Shown here in pieces: positions 38,224 to 45,273 of a stretch of DNA of 55,959 nt. The DNA comes from Promethearchaeota archaeon Loki_b31. GTDB lineage: Archaea > Asgardarchaeota > Lokiarchaeia > Sigyniarchaeales > SOKP01. The stretch is from contig NJBI01000015.1 in the NCBI GenBank assembly GCA_005222975.1, forward strand, positions 1-55,959. Reading direction: 5' to 3'. The position numbers and the translations under genes were made by a program. The notes below the pieces were generated by a model. It was not told the DNA's origin. It saw only the letters and a list, made by a program, of their open reading frames with translations, and made no database searches. Within the stretch, counting starts at the first letter, position 1; every line of letters starts with the position of its first letter.

Positions 38224-38470
38224 AATCTTCGTGAAATCGGTTTTCAGAAAAGAAAACATATTTTTGGAGGACCTTCTGCCAAAGATTACTTTTTAAGATA
38301 TTTGGCAGTTTTAATTGGAGGAATTCTTGGTTTTGTTGGAGCACTTGTACCTTTGGGTAATAATATAAATGTTACTCAAATTCCAATCACGTTTTCTGGT
38401 TCATTTTTGTTGCTGGATCCGATTTTAATGATTCTTGGTGGCATACTCGGATTAACTTTAAAAATAAACT
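38224..38470 (+). pseudogene. Probable fragment of a membrane-protein gene
   Basis: Open frame from 38224 (NLREIGFQKRKHIFGGPSAKDYFLRYLAVLIGGILG...ILGGILGL) with no good start; it degrades into low-complexity sequence and then the antisense of the tRNA. Confidence 0.4.
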
Positions 38471-38538
38471 ATCTATTTTTTTTATTTCCTTTTCTAAATT
38501 CAAATAAATTAAGAGAGATACTTAAATTAAATAAAAAG

Positions 38539-38641
38539 TGGAGCTGGGGGGATTCTCACATGACGGGTAAATCCCGCTTATTTATTGAACCCCCGGCCTT
38601 TCGCATGCCAAGCGAACGATCTTCCGCTAATCCACAGCCCC
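38539..38641 (-). tRNA. tRNA-Ala(GGC) with 31-nt intron in the T-loop (position 59/60; intron 38553..38583)
   Basis: Acceptor GGGGCTG/CAGCTCC with G3:U70 and A73; D arm GATT/GATC; anticodon arm TTCGC-TTGGCAT-GCGAA; T stem GGGGG/CCCCC; BHB motif at the junctions; CCA not encoded; T-tract follows. Confidence 0.93.
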
Positions 38642-38781
38642 ATTTAAAGATAAAAAATATTAATTCAGCATTATCGGACACATATAAAATCGTTAACTGT
38701 AGAATTTAATAATAATGGATTTTTAAAAAAAATTATGGTTTTTGAACTATTAAACTAAGAAATAAATAACAGATTTATTAT

Positions 38782-41700
38782 TTGAAGACTATGAAAAATT
38801 TTTGGAGAAAAATAAACTATCTATTAATTACGGTTTTGATAATTAACGCGATTATTAATCCCGTTCTTGGAATTGGAATTGTGAGAAATATTAATCACAA
38901 CAATCTTCAAAAGTTAGAGTTAGATTTCAGCGGATTAACGTATACTTCTTCAGATCAAGCAACTAATGAAAAATACAATTCAATATTACCCTTTAATAAG
39001 CAAAACGCGCTATTTGACGACTTATTGATAAAAGAATTAAATTTTATAGAATCATCTCAACAACATGATGAGACATTAATTAAGATTATAATCCTATTTA
39101 AAGATGGAATCTCAAAATCAGAAAGAATTGAATTAATAGATTCTATTTTTGATGAGTATGAAATAATTAATAATTATAATATTATTCCCGGCGTTTACAT
39201 GAAATGCAATCCAAAAGAATTGATTGCCAAAAAGGGTTTATTAGAAGTTGAATCCGCTTTAAAAAAGGTTTACAAGTCAAGATTTTATAGTTCACCATCT
39301 TTTCAAGAGCAATTTCCAGAAACTAGTGCGTTAAATAAAAATTCATATCCAAATTGGTGGATACCCGCTGTGGGAGCAGATAATTTAGGTTACGACGGTA
39401 GTGGCGTAAGAGTTGCTGTGATTGATACTGGAATATACGAACACCCTGATTTAAACTTATTATTAAGCCAGAATTTTGTTTCTGGAGAACTTTCTTCTGA
39501 ATACCAAGATTATGTAGGTCATGGAACTCATGTTGCAGGTATTATTGGAAGTAATGGAGGAGGTTCAAGTGGTGTTTACAGAGGCGTTGCTCCAGGCGTT
39601 TCTTTAATTAATGCAAAGGCTGGAGGCCTTTCAGGTTTAGAAGAAGGCGATGTTATTGGCGCTATTGAATGGTCTGTTGATACAGCTAATGCAGACATTA
39701 TTTCTATGAGTTTTGGTGGTAATTATCCAATTGCGAGTGATTCGATGATCTTAACTTTAGCAGCAGCTACAGAAAACGGCGTAATATGTGTTTCGTCAGC
39801 GGGAAATTCCGGTCCAGATTATTTTTCTGGTGGATCGCCTGCTTCTGGCATAGATGTCATTTCGGTGGGGGCTTCAGATAGAAATAACCATTTAGCCTAC
39901 TTTAGTAGTTGGGGCCCATCATTATCTTATTTAAGTTATCCTGATATTATTGCTCCGGGAGTAAATATTATCTCTACCGAGGCGCCAGAATCGGTTATAT
40001 CTGATAGATATCGCTTTATTGGAGATTACTTCGATTTTTCGGCCGATGCAGACTACTTACCTTTAAGTGGGACAAGTATGTCTTGTCCCGTTGTTGCTGG
40101 AGCTTTAGCAATTCTGAAACAAGCTTACCCTTTGATAACTCCCGAAACTGCGAGAATTGCCTTATTACAAGGTGCTCGAGACCTTTCCGATGTAGAAGAT
40201 GTTGAATTTTTGAAATCTGGTTTTGGTTTAATTAATGTGTCCGCTTCGCTTGACTATTTAAATTATTTAAATGCAAATTATTCCAATGTAAATGATGTAG
40301 CAAAAATTGCTCCCGATGAATTGCCTGTACAACCTTACGATTTATTGAATTTCCCTGGAGATCGTCAATTATTTAATTTAACTGTTATTTCAGGTAAAAA
40401 CAATAATTACAACATCAGTTATCCAATTATTATTGATGGAATCTCGTTGTCTATTGACAAACCTCAAATATCTTTTACCGATGCCGGTGTGAATTTCGTA
40501 GCACTAAAAGTTGAGATAGAAAGTGATGCAACGCCAGGTATAAGAAATTTTGAATTAAATATTACATCAGGAGTTAGGTTATACGATAATATTACAGTTT
40601 CAATAGAGGTTCGATTACCCGAGTATAGAGTTTTATTGGAATCTTACCACGGTTTGAATGATTGGCTCCCCGAACTTTCCTTCTATCAAATGGATTTTTA
40701 CGATTGGATGAAAGAACTTTCAGATTTAAACATCTCTATCGATTACTTAGCAGAATTTTGGACTCCAAATTACAATTCCAATTTAAATAATTCTATATTG
40801 ACTGAAGAACGATTAGCTCAATACGACTTGGTCGTATTACAAAACCCTATCTTGCCCTATAGTCCTTTAGAAATCCACAATTTGAAAAGATATTTTGATA
40901 ATGGAGGTAACATCTTGTTTTTAGGAACGAGATACCAAGATTTGTGTGTTGATAATATAAACGAGCTTTTTTCAGCAATTAACTTAGGAATCCAAATTAA
41001 CGAAGAGAATGTTGTCGATGAAAATTGGGTTGGAACTGGGGCAACCGTGAGTACTCAAAGCGTAACAGATTTTAACAATTCTCAAATATTTCAAGATGTA
41101 AACAAGTTTATATGGAACTATGGAACTACTTTAACAGCTTCGGGAAATGCAGAAGCGATTGCTTCAGTAGATGGGAAAATAGTTGTGGTTGCAAACGATG
41201 GTAGATTATCCGGAAGGGGACGATTTGTAGCGTTTGGGGATTTACACTGGGCTGCAGAGTTGTACGAATCGCAAACCTATTATCAAGACCATTATATTTT
41301 GACAAAAAATCTAATGCGCTATTTCTTGGAAAAAGACGAAGTTTCTATAAGTATTTTTCCCAATTCTGAAAGAACGCCCACTTCTCAAGTAAATATTTCA
41401 ATTTATGTGAAGGATCAAATTGGAGAAACGCCAGTTAGCTCAGCTACCCTAAATTCATATCTAAATGTATCAGTAGAAAACGATGCTTATTTTGAAACTG
41501 TAAATATGGTTTCAATGTCAGATGGTATCGCAATTAACAACACTTTTTCTTTACCCAGCCCAAGTAATAAACCATATGTTATAAAAGTGAATCTAACAAT
41601 TGGATCAAAGACTTACAATAAAACCTCCAAAATTCTTTATTATGACAACTCAGAAGTTCCAAAGATACTTAGTTTATGGGCCACTACTGACATCGAAAGA

Positions 41701-42753
41701 AATGGTGTTGATACATTAGATATCAATGCCACACTTGACGGAAGCAATTTTAATGCAACGGCTTATCTATCGATATATCCATCTACCTATTACACTAAAG
41801 AAGGAACAATCAATAAGACTTTTACTTTATCTAATTCACCATCAAATCCATTCAATTACTCTATTAGCAACACTCCTATATCTACGGATCCACCTGGTTA
41901 TGCTACTTTTTACATTCTGCCTTATAATCATAGTTCAAATTATTACAATCCACATTCGCCTAGATTAATTTCAATTATAATAAATCACCCTCCTGAATTC
42001 ATTGAAGAAACTTCTACAATATTAATCGATAACAATCAATTAATATCGCTTGATGAGACTCATACGGAAGATAGTTTACTAGTCATTCTTGTATCCCAAG
42101 GGAGCCAGCTTGACTTTATTATAAACCTTATTGATTCTGTGAGTTATGAGGATCAAGATAGCTCAAAAATGAGGGTGTCAGTAAACCTTTTTATCGCCTC
42201 AATTTCAGAGGACAATACAATTGTACCGATTAATTCAAAGAACTTTGTTCTTTCTGAATTAGAATATAAACCAGGTTCGAATACTCACTATGGAACTTTC
42301 GCAATTCCATATACTATGGAATTCTCCTCCATTACTGGAACGAAAAAGCTTTCAACTGCGTCTCAATATGATAATGATGCTCAAGATGGCTATTTAGCGA
42401 TCCTATTGATCACGGCTTTTGATAGCGAAGGAGAGTCTGAAGACTTTTTTATGGTTTTGTTGATTCAACCTTCAATACCTTCTGATTTTTTATTAGTACT
42501 AATTATTATCGGAGTTATAGTAGTAGTTGGAATAATTGTTGGCGTCTCACTTTTAGTTAGAAAGAAGAAAAAATCTCGCATATCGGCTCCTTTTGAAGGA
42601 TATTACCACCAAGATTATGAAGATGTTCCTTCACAAGAAGTATATGATTTCACTCAAAAGTCAGTATATTTTTGTCCTTATTGTGGATTTCAATTAACTA
42701 CGCCAAGAAGTTTTTGCCCTAATTGCGGTAAATCTTTAAAATTCCAAGAATAA
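38782..42753 (+). CDS. Membrane-anchored S8 subtilase with GldG/IFT52 (GIFT)-like domain, C-terminal TM and cytoplasmic zinc ribbon
   Basis: Signal/anchor sequence, prodomain, triad VAVIDTG / HGTHVAG / GTSMS, oxyanion SAGNSG; QYDLVVL.NP..PYS..EI..L..YF.NGG..LFLG domain; TM followed by RKKKK; FCPYCG...FCPNCG. Confidence 0.9.
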   Translation: MKTMKNFWRKINYLLITVLIINAIINPVLGIGIVRNINHNNLQKLELDFSGLTYTSSDQATNEKYNSILPFNKQNALFDDLLIKELNFIESSQQHDETLIKIIILFKDGISKSERIELIDSIFDEYEIINNYNIIPGVYMKCNPKELIAKKGLLEVESALKKVYKSRFYSSPSFQEQFPETSALNKNSYPNWWIPAVGADNLGYDGSGVRVAVIDTGIYEHPDLNLLLSQNFVSGELSSEYQDYVGHGTHVAGIIGSNGGGSSGVYRGVAPGVSLINAKAGGLSGLEEGDVIGAIEWSVDTANADIISMSFGGNYPIASDSMILTLAAATENGVICVSSAGNSGPDYFSGGSPASGIDVISVGASDRNNHLAYFSSWGPSLSYLSYPDIIAPGVNIISTEAPESVISDRYRFIGDYFDFSADADYLPLSGTSMSCPVVAGALAILKQAYPLITPETARIALLQGARDLSDVEDVEFLKSGFGLINVSASLDYLNYLNANYSNVNDVAKIAPDELPVQPYDLLNFPGDRQLFNLTVISGKNNNYNISYPIIIDGISLSIDKPQISFTDAGVNFVALKVEIESDATPGIRNFELNITSGVRLYDNITVSIEVRLPEYRVLLESYHGLNDWLPELSFYQMDFYDWMKELSDLNISIDYLAEFWTPNYNSNLNNSILTEERLAQYDLVVLQNPILPYSPLEIHNLKRYFDNGGNILFLGTRYQDLCVDNINELFSAINLGIQINEENVVDENWVGTGATVSTQSVTDFNNSQIFQDVNKFIWNYGTTLTASGNAEAIASVDGKIVVVANDGRLSGRGRFVAFGDLHWAAELYESQTYYQDHYILTKNLMRYFLEKDEVSISIFPNSERTPTSQVNISIYVKDQIGETPVSSATLNSYLNVSVENDAYFETVNMVSMSDGIAINNTFSLPSPSNKPYVIKVNLTIGSKTYNKTSKILYYDNSEVPKILSLWATTDIERNGVDTLDINATLDGSNFNATAYLSIYPSTYYTKEGTINKTFTLSNSPSNPFNYSISNTPISTDPPGYATFYILPYNHSSNYYNPHSPRLISIIINHPPEFIEETSTILIDNNQLISLDETHTEDSLLVILVSQGSQLDFIINLIDSVSYEDQDSSKMRVSVNLFIASISEDNTIVPINSKNFVLSELEYKPGSNTHYGTFAIPYTMEFSSITGTKKLSTASQYDNDAQDGYLAILLITAFDSEGESEDFFMVLLIQPSIPSDFLLVLIIIGVIVVVGIIVGVSLLVRKKKKSRISAPFEGYYHQDYEDVPSQEVYDFTQKSVYFCPYCGFQLTTPRSFCPNCGKSLKFQE

Positions 42754-42760
42754 TTTTTTT

Positions 42761-43411
42761 TTAATCTTCTTTATTGTTCAAGTTTTGGAGATCGGAATGC
42801 TTTAACAAATCGATAACCCGATTGGGGTCCTTTGCATTTAAAATAGTACTTGTACTGCTTAAAATATCGGCATTTAACTGGTTAGCGTTTATAAGATTTA
42901 TCCCCCCATCTATATCAACAATAAAAGCATACTTTTTCTTAAGTATAGCTAGCTGGTTTACCTTTTCAATTGAATGTGGAATGAATTTTTGACCAGACCC
43001 ACCTGGATAAACTGACATTACTAAAACTAAGTCAACTAAATCCAAGTAAGGAATTATTTCTGCGATTGTTGTATCTGGATCGATTGCTAAGCCCACTTTT
43101 TTCTTCCTATTCTTCAGTTCATTTATTAACGCTTTCTTATCTCCCGTTATTTCGTAATGAAAAGTAAATATATGAACATAATCAATAATTTTATCAATAT
43201 AGTCAAAGGGATTGTTTACCATCAAATGGGCGATGATAGGAATATCATATCTCTCTTTCAATATTCTAAATAAGTCCAAATCAAGGTTTATAACAGGTGT
43301 AAACTTTCCATCCGCAACATCAATATGTATGTAATCAAGCCCTACTAATCCCTCAAGAGGATCAAGATTAAAATTTAGGTTTGCATGAACAGCAACAGCA
43401 ATCTTTTTCAT
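42761..43411 (-). CDS. rpe: Ribulose-phosphate 3-epimerase
   Basis: [33 protein letters not shown] and DIDGGIN motifs. Confidence 0.93.
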
Positions 43412-43536: not shown

Positions 43537-44358
43537 TTAATTTGGGATATCCTTTTTACTAAAAACAAATAAACTCCCTGCAATGAGAACTCCGTTGATA
43601 ATTCCTAAGACAATAATGTCTCGTGTAAATAAGGCTGAATCTGCTTTTACCAAATAATCAACAGGATTATAGTAATAGAAGATTGATATGTATTTAATAC
43701 CCTGGATAGCTTCATCCATATATACGTAAAATGAACCGAGAAAAAACATTATAAATAAAACCATCACTCCCACTGCCACCGACTTTTTCGTACTTAAGAA
43801 TATCGTCGAACTGAATTTAGCTACCATTGCAAGTGCTCCGAGGAAGAGAACAACAGAAAAATAAGTTGCAAATAATCTCTCAAGAAAAATTCCTTCCGTT
43901 CTAAATGTTGATGAAGCTACCATACTTCCTAGCGTTATTAGAAAGAAAATACCGATAACTGTCATATTAAATACATATAGGAATGTAATTTTACTTCCAA
44001 GGAAATTATACCGAGAAATTGGTTTAGAGAGGGAAAGATCAATAGTCTTATTTTCTACATCACGGGAAAGGAGTGAACTAGCCATAAAGATAAGATAGAT
44101 CCCGGCATATAACCAAATGAAGCTTAAAAGTTCCATAGCCCAAAATCCATAAGGATTAGCTATTACTTCCAAGTCTCCTAAAAAAGCCATCAAGTCCTCA
44201 GGATATACGCTAAAAAAACCCTCCATTGCTTGTAAATCTATATCTTCTATTATAACTATTATATAAAAGCTTAGTAAGCCAATTACACCACCTAGTATTA
44301 GAATCGTGAATTTCTTTTCGAAAATTAGCTCCTTAACTGTGCTAAAAAATCGTTTCAT
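43537..44358 (-). CDS. ABC-2 type transporter permease
   Basis: 6 TM helices; E.KTIDL.LSKPISR..FL.SK and SIFYYY motifs; adjacent to the ATPase gene. Confidence 0.9.
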   Translation of the reverse strand: MKRFFSTVKELIFEKKFTILILGGVIGLLSFYIIVIIEDIDLQAMEGFFSVYPEDLMAFLGDLEVIANPYGFWAMELLSFIWLYAGIYLIFMASSLLSRDVENKTIDLSLSKPISRYNFLGSKITFLYVFNMTVIGIFFLITLGSMVASSTFRTEGIFLERLFATYFSVVLFLGALAMVAKFSSTIFLSTKKSVAVGVMVLFIMFFLGSFYVYMDEAIQGIKYISIFYYYNPVDYLVKADSALFTRDIIVLGIINGVLIAGSLFVFSKKDIPN

Positions 44359-45273
44359 TTAGGATGCCACCTCATAATATTTTAAAAATATATCCTCAAG
44401 TGCAGGACTTGTAACCTCTATGTCTACGATCTCAAATTTCGAAAGTAAGTTGAATACATTAGATATTTGTTCACGAGTAATCATGAATGAAGCATGGGTT
44501 TCATTAAATATAACAGATTCTACAGTTTGTGATGGTAGTTGATCAGAGAATTTCTGAAGTGCTTCTTTAGTAGCAAATTCAACTCTAATCTCTTTCATTG
44601 CCATGCTTTTTAGTTGTTGAATAGTAGCTACCTCAACTATTGTTCCTTCTCTTATGATACCCACACGATGAGCAACTTTTTCAACTTCTCCAAGCAAGTG
44701 GGAGCTAAGAAGCACGGTTGAACCTGTTTCTTTTTGTTGTTGACGAAGAATCTTGTAGAATTCAGCGGTTATTAAAGGATCCAGTCCAGCAGTAGGTTCG
44801 TCTAAGATTAGAAGATCCACCTCAGGGGCTAAAGCAAGTACTATTCCGACTTTTTGTTTATTCCCCTTACTGAGTTCTTTAACTTTTCTGTCAAGTTCTA
44901 ACCCGAATATCACTGCCAATTCCTCAATTCGTCTGATAGGAATATGATTTTCATAAAGTCCAAGAAGATATTTTAGGTTTCGCCTGGCAGTTTTGTCTTG
45001 AAATAAACCTAGGTCCCCCGGTAGGTAAGCAGTGCGTTGACGAATTTCAGTCGAATGATGGTGAATGTCAAGATCAAAAATCTGTGCTTCACCTGAAGTT
45101 TTTCGGATTAAATCGAGAAGAGTTCGAACTACAGTCGTTTTCCCCGCTCCATTAGGTCCAAGTAAGCCAAAAATTTCTCCCTGATATACTTCAAGATCGA
45201 AGTTTTCAATACCTCTTGATTTACCGTAATATTTAGTTAAATTTTTGGTTTGAATAATTATATTTTTAGACAT
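44359..45273 (-). CDS. ABC transporter ATP-binding protein
   Basis: GPNGAGKT, LSKGNKQK, LLILDEPT and SSH motifs. Confidence 0.95.
   Translation of the reverse strand: MSKNIIIQTKNLTKYYGKSRGIENFDLEVYQGEIFGLLGPNGAGKTTVVRTLLDLIRKTSGEAQIFDLDIHHHSTEIRQRTAYLPGDLGLFQDKTARRNLKYLLGLYENHIPIRRIEELAVIFGLELDRKVKELSKGNKQKVGIVLALAPEVDLLILDEPTAGLDPLITAEFYKILRQQQKETGSTVLLSSHLLGEVEKVAHRVGIIREGTIVEVATIQQLKSMAMKEIRVEFATKEALQKFSDQLPSQTVESVIFNETHASFMITREQISNVFNLLSKFEIVDIEVTSPALEDIFLKYYEVAS

Follow-up and report, generated by a model that had tools for sequence, protein, structure and literature searches.

A membrane-anchored subtilase of a Loki-type Asgard archaeon with a predicted head resembling that of eukaryotic site-1 protease

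We analyzed a 55,959-nucleotide stretch of DNA from Promethearchaeota archaeon Loki_b31 (contig NJBI01000015.1, positions 1 to 55,959 of the forward strand; G+C content about 32%), hereafter referred to as the window, and found that it carries an intact and conserved gene for a membrane-anchored subtilase (peptidase family S8) at 38791-42753. Structure prediction suggests that the encoded protein has the three-domain head of eukaryotic site-1 protease (S1P), in which the S8 catalytic domain is followed by a P-like beta-sandwich and a GIFT (GldG/IFT52) domain, and that this head is joined to a beta-sandwich stalk, a transmembrane helix, and a cytoplasmic zinc ribbon. We propose that the protein is an active type-I membrane ectoprotease of this Loki-type Asgard archaeon and that, among prokaryotic proteins, its family is the strongest candidate for the ancestor of the S1P body plan, a reading to which we assign a probability of about 0.6. 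A conserved Asgard family with the S1P head architecture would provide a concrete and testable candidate for the origin of S1P as well as a simpler, SPRING-free model of GIFT control over a subtilase, and it would bring surface proteolysis into our view of the archaeal ancestor of eukaryotes.

The open reading frame (ORF) extends from 38782 to 42753 on the plus strand and comprises 1323 codons when counted from the TTG at 38782, the numbering used here for residues. An ATG is found at 38791 and a TAA stop at 42751-42753. Since the representative of a 100%-identical database cluster has 1320 amino acids, translation most likely starts at the ATG. A preliminary description of the window had read the protein as a signal, a prodomain, an S8 domain, a beta-rich domain, an alpha/beta domain, further beta domains, a transmembrane segment, and a tail. 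This order was borne out by Pfam matches, by homology to the Thermococcus kodakarensis subtilase Tk-SP, and by AlphaFold2 models, and the limits given for the alpha/beta domain (40621-41330) proved accurate to within a codon. The features of the gene are as follows.

38791-42753, plus strand: whole gene of the S8-GIFT membrane subtilase, 1320 amino acids from the ATG (ORF list, translation, identical cluster representative).
38791-38874, plus strand: probable signal peptide or signal anchor, residues 4-31, a basic n-region followed by a hydrophobic stretch, as read from the translation.
38875-39351, plus strand: propeptide, about residues 32-190, related to the N-propeptide of Tk-SP (phmmer match to 3afg_A).
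39352-40281, plus strand: S8 subtilase catalytic domain, residues 191-500 (Pfam PF00082, conserved catalytic residues, VIA alignment with subtilisins and Tk-SP).
39424-39426, 39520-39522, 39805-39807, and 40075-40077, plus strand: catalytic residues D215, H247, oxyanion N342, and S432, respectively, conserved in homologues.
40282-40620, plus strand: predicted beta-sandwich "P-like" domain, residues 501-613 (AlphaFold2 model m598c99509ee7, strands at model residues 318-431).
40621-41331, plus strand: GIFT (GldG/IFT52, GATase-like alpha/beta) domain, residues 614-850 (Pfam, profile, and model).
41344-42471, plus strand: predicted stalk of three Ig/MG/Fn3-like beta-sandwich domains, residues 855-1230 (AlphaFold2 model m8e10044b2817).
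42487-42558, plus strand: predicted single transmembrane helix, residues 1236-1259, followed by RKKKK (positive-inside), read from the sequence and from a long helix at model residues 380-413.
42670-42738, plus strand: predicted cytoplasmic C4 zinc ribbon, C1298/C1301/C1312/C1315 (Pfam, conservation).

The strongest evidence for an S1P-like head comes from the predicted structure of residues 190-870, which were modeled with AlphaFold2 from an alignment with 28 divergent Asgard relatives reaching down to 27% identity. In the resulting core model (pLDDT 88.9, pTM 0.86), an S8 fold is followed by a beta-sandwich and then by an alpha/beta domain (model residues 447-660), whose strands and helices alternate and which aligned to the GIFT part of S1P. 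When the model was searched against the PDB with Foldseek, human S1P occupied ranks 1 and 2 (9csd_A, E 4.4e-40; 8uw8_A, E 3.3e-38) with 769 alignment columns and TM-scores of 0.62 and 0.58, while Vpr, Tk-SP, and subtilisins ranked below and covered only the first one or two domains. VIA-align superposed model residues 1-664 on residues 190-875 of 8uw8_A with a Z-score of 44.1 over 582 residues (5.2 Å, 25% identity). 8uw8_A and 9csd_A were the only solved chains that span the S8, beta, and GIFT domains in a single superposition. The predicted head is collinear with that of S1P, appears to be packed in the same manner, and superposes as one body, in agreement with the S1P-like architecture that the preliminary description had put forward. 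The P-like domain aligned within the S1P superposition and, in part, also with the beta domain of Tk-SP and Vpr. For Tk-SP itself, VIA returned a Z-score of 45.1 over 302 residues (rmsd 1.8 Å, 33% identity) in an alignment that extends into the first beta-sandwich; for subtilisins, the Z-score was about 41 over approximately 264 residues at 38-40% identity. The rmsd for the subtilisins and Tk-SP together ranged from 1.5 to 1.8 Å.

Sequence comparisons also identified the S8 and GIFT domains. Pfam PF00082 (Peptidase_S8) matched residues 206-469 with an E-value of 9e-50 and a score of 170 bits against a cut-off of 21.8, and D215 (in DTG), H247 (in HGTH), N342, and S432 (in GTSM) are invariant in all 27 aligned homologues (48-74% identity), which places the protein in family S8. 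Using phmmer against ProN-Tk-SP (3afg_A), we aligned residues 100-501 with chain residues 36-427 (E 3e-49), and a family-profile alignment to Tk-SP (E 2e-71) begins as early as residue 88. The middle domain, which the preliminary description implied to be GIFT-like, was recognized as such by Pfam PF23355 (IFT52_GIFT), which matched residues 661-747 with 35.1 bits against a gathering cut-off of 27.2 and also matched 28 of 29 diverse members of the protease family. A profile of the beta and GIFT domains built from 29 sequences likewise matched IFT52 structures at 1e-17 (67 bits) over nearly the whole GIFT domain, and weak matches to the ABC_transp_aux, OST48_N, and DUF4350 profiles were detected in the same region. 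The domain thus belongs to the clan of GIFT-GATase-like domains that includes IFT52 (5FMR, 5FMS, 8BD7), GldG/ABC_transp_aux, and OST48. However, IFT52 is a cytoplasmic subunit of ciliary transport, whereas the Loki GIFT domain is predicted to be extracellular and is fused behind a protease; GldG-type proteins accompany ABC-2 transporters, whereas the Loki protein has no conserved transporter link.

The C-terminal third was modeled separately (residues 855-1323, pLDDT 87.3) and is predicted to consist of three beta-sandwiches, a long transmembrane helix, a disordered linker, and a small zinc ribbon. Fold searches with the C-terminal domains returned only generic tandem Ig, macroglobulin, or Fn3 arrays with Z-scores of about 10, including adhesins, S-layer proteins, and complement-type proteins, and we read the three predicted sandwiches as a stalk. 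Because the transmembrane stretch is followed by RKKKK, the tail is predicted to be cytoplasmic; one C-terminal transmembrane helix with a basic cytoplasmic stretch is also the arrangement of S1P. The zinc ribbon had escaped the preliminary description. Pfam Zn_Ribbon_1 matched residues 1297-1319 below its cut-off (E 1.6e-4), and the four cysteines of the CxxC...CxxC pattern are invariant in 27 of 27 homologues. The same tail recurs in most of 28 divergent Asgard homologues examined, which suggests that it is an old feature of the protease family.

Two groups of known proteins frame the comparison. S1P (MBTPS1/SKI-1; MEROPS S08.063; plant SBT6.1/SBT7; structures 8UW8, 9CSD, and 8UWC) shares with the Loki protein the succession of signal peptide, propeptide, S8, P-like, and GIFT domains and a single C-terminal transmembrane helix with a basic juxtamembrane stretch. 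It differs in that identity amounts to 19-25% only, in that it lacks both the approximately 370 extra stalk residues and the zinc ribbon of the Loki protein, and in that the latter has no known SPRING-like partner (no search aimed at one was made) and stands outside any endoplasmic reticulum or Golgi setting. S1P itself cuts after R-x-(hydrophobic)-x motifs within stalks or lumenal loops of regulators bound to the membrane, with S2P making the next cut; it sheds a two-part prodomain autocatalytically in steps and is licensed by SPRING. The closest sequence relative of the propeptide and catalytic domain is Tk-SP (3AFG, 9UES), which, like Vpr (8JMW), is secreted and soluble and has no GIFT domain, stalk, membrane anchor, or zinc ribbon.

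To what extent the resemblance is specific to S1P can be judged from the profiles of its own domains. Neither MBTPS1_3rd (PF23094) nor MBTPS1_4th (PF23090) matched the Loki protein at E <= 1. MBTPS1_3rd found no match in any of the 29 diverse relatives or in the further Asgard S8-GIFT proteins checked. MBTPS1_4th was matched by 8 of the 29 relatives (best 4e-8), and across 400 Asgard genomes it yielded marginal partial matches only (best 36 bits). Using HMMER, the beta and GIFT profile matched S1P (8UW8/8UWC) with 27.8 bits (E 1e-5). The pairings with MBTPS1 segments that the preliminary description had drawn do appear in this alignment, which holds the R-V-L-W-D-Q-Y-H-N-L, Y-G-T-L-L...E-E-I...N-G, and G-R-I-V-L-Y-G-D regions, but the match is weak and the motifs are generic to GIFT domains: the latter two regions aligned equally well to IFT52, and the conserved His of the first was found in 40 of the 42 aligned copies from unrelated multi-GIFT proteins that cover this position. 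We therefore rejected "YH.L", "EEI...NG", and "G.iv.yGD" as S1P-specific motifs; because they occur in IFT52 and multi-GIFT proteins too, they are not shared derived characters. A different type of comparison, the Atlas language-model feature search, placed eukaryotic MBTPS1 clusters at the top of all named clusters (score 0.96, 192 of 256 shared features), with MBTPS1 accounting for nine of the best matches; a Thorarchaeota S8-DUF4350 cluster scored 0.90, and bacterial multidomain subtilases scored 0.85 or less. We regard this ranking as a lead that partly reflects domain composition. Judged from the sequences, the link to S1P is architectural only. Of the earlier proposal that the protein is a prokaryotic relative of S1P, the architecture and the Atlas ranking speak in favor, whereas the unmatched S1P-specific profiles and the proximity of the S8 domain to Tk-SP do not, and we retain it as a plausible hypothesis.

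Searches for relatives indicated that the family is widespread in Asgard archaea. The beta and GIFT part was matched in 278 of the 400 Asgard genomes; strong matches lie in frames of 1220-1360 amino acids in the family and order of Loki_b31, and weaker full-length matches lie in frames of similar length in other Asgard classes. When the profile was run against 1.84 billion protein representatives, it returned 6416 matches, of which the best 150 are Asgard S8-GIFT or multi-GIFT proteins. Among these best 150, the S8-beta-GIFT order occurs in dozens of representative clusters, and every named one is from Asgard archaea. The named database homologues of the Loki protein are all from Asgard archaea too, mostly Lokiarchaeota/Promethearchaeota. 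A word-indexed profile search of longer proteins retrieved, among the matches listed, close family members only, and the GIFT part of the Asgard protein with the best MBTPS1_4th match, used as a query, gave nine matches, none of them eukaryotic. A motif-pattern scan of the genome contigs was dominated by the generic GHGTH pattern and recovered four full-length relatives. A second Asgard family of about 960-1040 amino acids (L144, L146, L148-L153, L156) has the same order of S8, beta-sandwich, and GIFT domains at a length close to that of eukaryotic S1P; its GIFT domain matches DUF4350, ABC_transp_aux, MBTPS1_4th, and IFT52_GIFT about equally weakly. In a third Asgard type, the S8 and GIFT domains are separated by a long insert.

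These enzymes appear to form an old lineage. In a quick maximum-likelihood tree of 118 S8 domains, which was unrooted, based on a short search, and built without S1P, 73 of 76 non-GIFT subtilases fell into one supported clade (SH-aLRT 95), and all 42 GIFT-bearing Asgard enzymes fell outside it; the starred branches of this tree would allow a single origin of the S8-GIFT fusion. Synteny with rpiA, purE, and a thiolase gene is held only inside the family of Loki_b31. In several distant Asgard lineages (L170, L171, L173-L177), the S8-GIFT gene lies within a few kilobases of the genes for ABCE1 (RLI) and class-I lysyl-tRNA synthetase (LysRS). As these are housekeeping genes, the neighborhood fits old vertical inheritance and offers no functional clue. 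The recurrent "ABC" neighbor in these lineages, considered as a possible transporter, was discarded because it is ABCE1 itself. Taken together, these sequence data are consistent with an ancient S8-GIFT protease family that has been vertically inherited in Asgard archaea.

Several observations weigh against the reading that the protein is an active ectoprotease from the family that gave rise to the S1P body plan. Its catalytic domain shares 33-40% identity with Tk-SP and subtilisins but 25% with S1P, the latter value referring to the whole superposition; its GIFT domain is closer to the IFT52 and ABC_transp_aux profiles than to MBTPS1_4th, and MBTPS1_4th matched in none of the 134 genomes of Loki_b31's own family. 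Topology, glycosylation, activity, and substrates are, like the domain packing of the head, predictions; the 19 N-x-S/T sequons, although all located in the ectodomain, are close to the approximately 17 expected from composition alone. Finally, no conserved partner gene was found at the locus or across the relatives' flanks, so that selective processing of surface proteins and nutritional proteolysis, the two roles considered below, are not separable on this basis.

Asgard archaea are the closest known archaeal relatives of eukaryotes, and descent of S1P from the Asgard S8-GIFT family is plausible because the two share architecture, collinearity, and packing and because this design has so far been restricted to Asgard archaea and eukaryotes. 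We tentatively suggest, while regarding it as the less probable outcome, that a protease with S8, P-like, and GIFT domains and a transmembrane anchor was already present in the Asgard ancestor and was the direct forerunner of eukaryotic S1P. S1P would then count as a eukaryotic signature protein that derives from archaea and had not been listed before, and the lumenal first cut in the two-step proteolysis of SREBP/ATF6 type would have evolved from an archaeal cell-surface processing enzyme. A 2019 survey of subtilases considered the S1P group to be probably of eukaryotic origin (PMC6713707). In the literature that we searched, site-1 protease was not mentioned together with Asgard archaea in any paper, and neither was IFT52.

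Convergence is an equally serious contender that likewise falls short of an even chance. On this view, Asgard archaea and eukaryotes would each have fused S8, beta-sandwich, and GIFT domains on their own, or the eukaryotic version would have come from another source. The weak and unspecific sequence affinity described above (27.8 bits to S1P versus 67 bits to IFT52) speaks for convergence, as do the GIFT-wide distribution of the shared motifs, the complete lack of MBTPS1_3rd matches, and the marginal MBTPS1_4th matches outside the Loki protein. The ingredients are also common: an S8 domain with a C-terminal beta-sandwich is frequent among subtilases such as Tk-SP and Vpr, and Asgard genomes abound in GIFT domains, which are promiscuous and occur there both in multi-GIFT giants and as stand-alone copies. 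This promiscuity, together with the lack of an S1P-specific sequence signal, keeps convergence plausible. On the other hand, independent assembly does not readily account for the collinear order, domain sizes, and packing of the 582 residues that superpose as one rigid body, for an architecture that among named representatives is seen in Asgard archaea only, or for the first rank of MBTPS1 in the Atlas search.

As to function, we lean toward a role of the Loki protein in the selective processing or shedding of surface or secreted proteins. In the mechanism that we envisage, the protein would be exported through the Sec pathway, fold with the assistance of its propeptide, and remove the latter autocatalytically, and its ectodomain may be N-glycosylated at the sequons. 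The head, with its S8, beta-sandwich, and GIFT domains packed together, would be held above the membrane on the stalk. S1P is built of peptidase S8, P-like beta, and GIFT subdomains, and its GIFT subdomain braces the loops around the oxyanion-hole Asn (PMC11231238). By analogy, the GIFT domain of the Loki protein may brace the loops around its oxyanion hole and narrow access to the active site, which would favor selective cleavage over bulk digestion, and the conserved zinc ribbon may couple the protease to a cytoplasmic partner or to a particular location. We rank this role above the alternatives on three grounds: the gene is conserved in single copy, the cytoplasmic tail of the protein is conserved, and its GIFT domain would occlude the active site.

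It is less likely that the enzyme serves nutrition as a tethered counterpart of pyrolysin- or Tk-SP-type enzymes that feeds a peptide-fermenting archaeon, with GIFT and beta domains that are purely structural or glycan-binding. The best relatives of its propeptide and catalytic domain are indeed broad-specificity proteases (among solved structures, the catalytic domain matched Tk-SP first, at 3e-49, and subtilisins next, at about 1e-29), and the neighboring genes encode no regulatory or substrate partner. Genes for major facilitator superfamily (MFS) and ABC transporters do lie nearby in the window, but they are not conserved neighbors. Single copy, a near-constant length across Asgard classes, and a conserved zinc ribbon would, however, be unusual for a scavenging enzyme, and the GIFT domain of S1P restricts access by packing over the loops of the active site (PMC11231238).

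A true site-1 function, in which the enzyme would sever the outer portion of a regulator tethered to the membrane before an M50 (S2P-type) protease releases the cytoplasmic part, has the S1P-like head, the type-I anchoring, and one M50 gene in the genome (contig C55, 597 amino acids) in its favor, but we consider it improbable, given that this gene is unlinked to the protease gene, that M50 proteases are present in 14 of 14 control genomes, that no membrane-tethered transcription factor was identified, and that the S1P-specific sequence signature was not found. The M50 gene that the preliminary description had suggested looking for does exist, but its presence is uninformative because all 14 control genomes have one. 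Nothing found in the neighborhood or the genome ties the protease to regulated intramembrane proteolysis, and, to our knowledge, known prokaryotic site-1 steps rely on unrelated proteases.

The genes around the protease suggest that it forms a transcription unit of its own. Upstream are a putative tRNA on the minus strand and a divergent racemase gene; on the downstream side, the genes are convergent toward the protease gene, which argues that it is monocistronic. A likely terminator immediately follows the stop.

42754-42763, plus strand: oligo-T run immediately 3' of the stop codon, probably an archaeal terminator, as read from the sequence.

The sequence of the putative tRNA (38539-38641, minus strand) terminates with letters complementary to a CCA acceptor end; ARAGORN, run on the whole window, detected no tRNA. 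A 135-codon ORF that overlaps it (38302-38709) lacks any Pfam match and is unlikely to be a real gene. Further downstream, a gene pair for an ABC-2 permease and ATPase (43537-45273, minus strand) sits between rpe and rpiA and raised the question of a GldG-like link between the GIFT domain and an ABC transporter. We rejected this link: the pair does not occur at the 90%-identical locus of a same-genus genome (L164) and is therefore not a partner of the protease. It was either recently inserted here or lost in the other genome.

Elsewhere in the genome, the sole other large S8 subtilase is encoded on contig C83 (65935-67212, plus strand) within a 1760-codon open frame. Among the database representatives, giant proteins of 1900-4800 amino acids, including P0168, P0176, P0181, P0186, P0192, and P0235, contain 6-10 tandem GIFT domains. 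In the genome of Loki_b31 itself, five stand-alone GIFT proteins of 242-449 amino acids (L158-L162) pass the IFT52_GIFT gathering score. Their matches are located as follows.

C34, 27584-28147, minus strand: stand-alone GIFT protein, IFT52_GIFT match.
C35, 27047-27442, minus strand: stand-alone GIFT protein, IFT52_GIFT match.
C63, 26669-27265, plus strand: stand-alone GIFT protein, IFT52_GIFT match.
C61, 31750-32085, minus strand: stand-alone GIFT protein, IFT52_GIFT match.
C18, 47350-47772, minus strand: stand-alone GIFT protein, IFT52_GIFT match.

In two of these proteins (449 and 424 amino acids), the domain is N-terminal and the overall size is about that of IFT52. The stand-alone proteins may be relevant to the question of where the GIFT domain of IFT52 came from.

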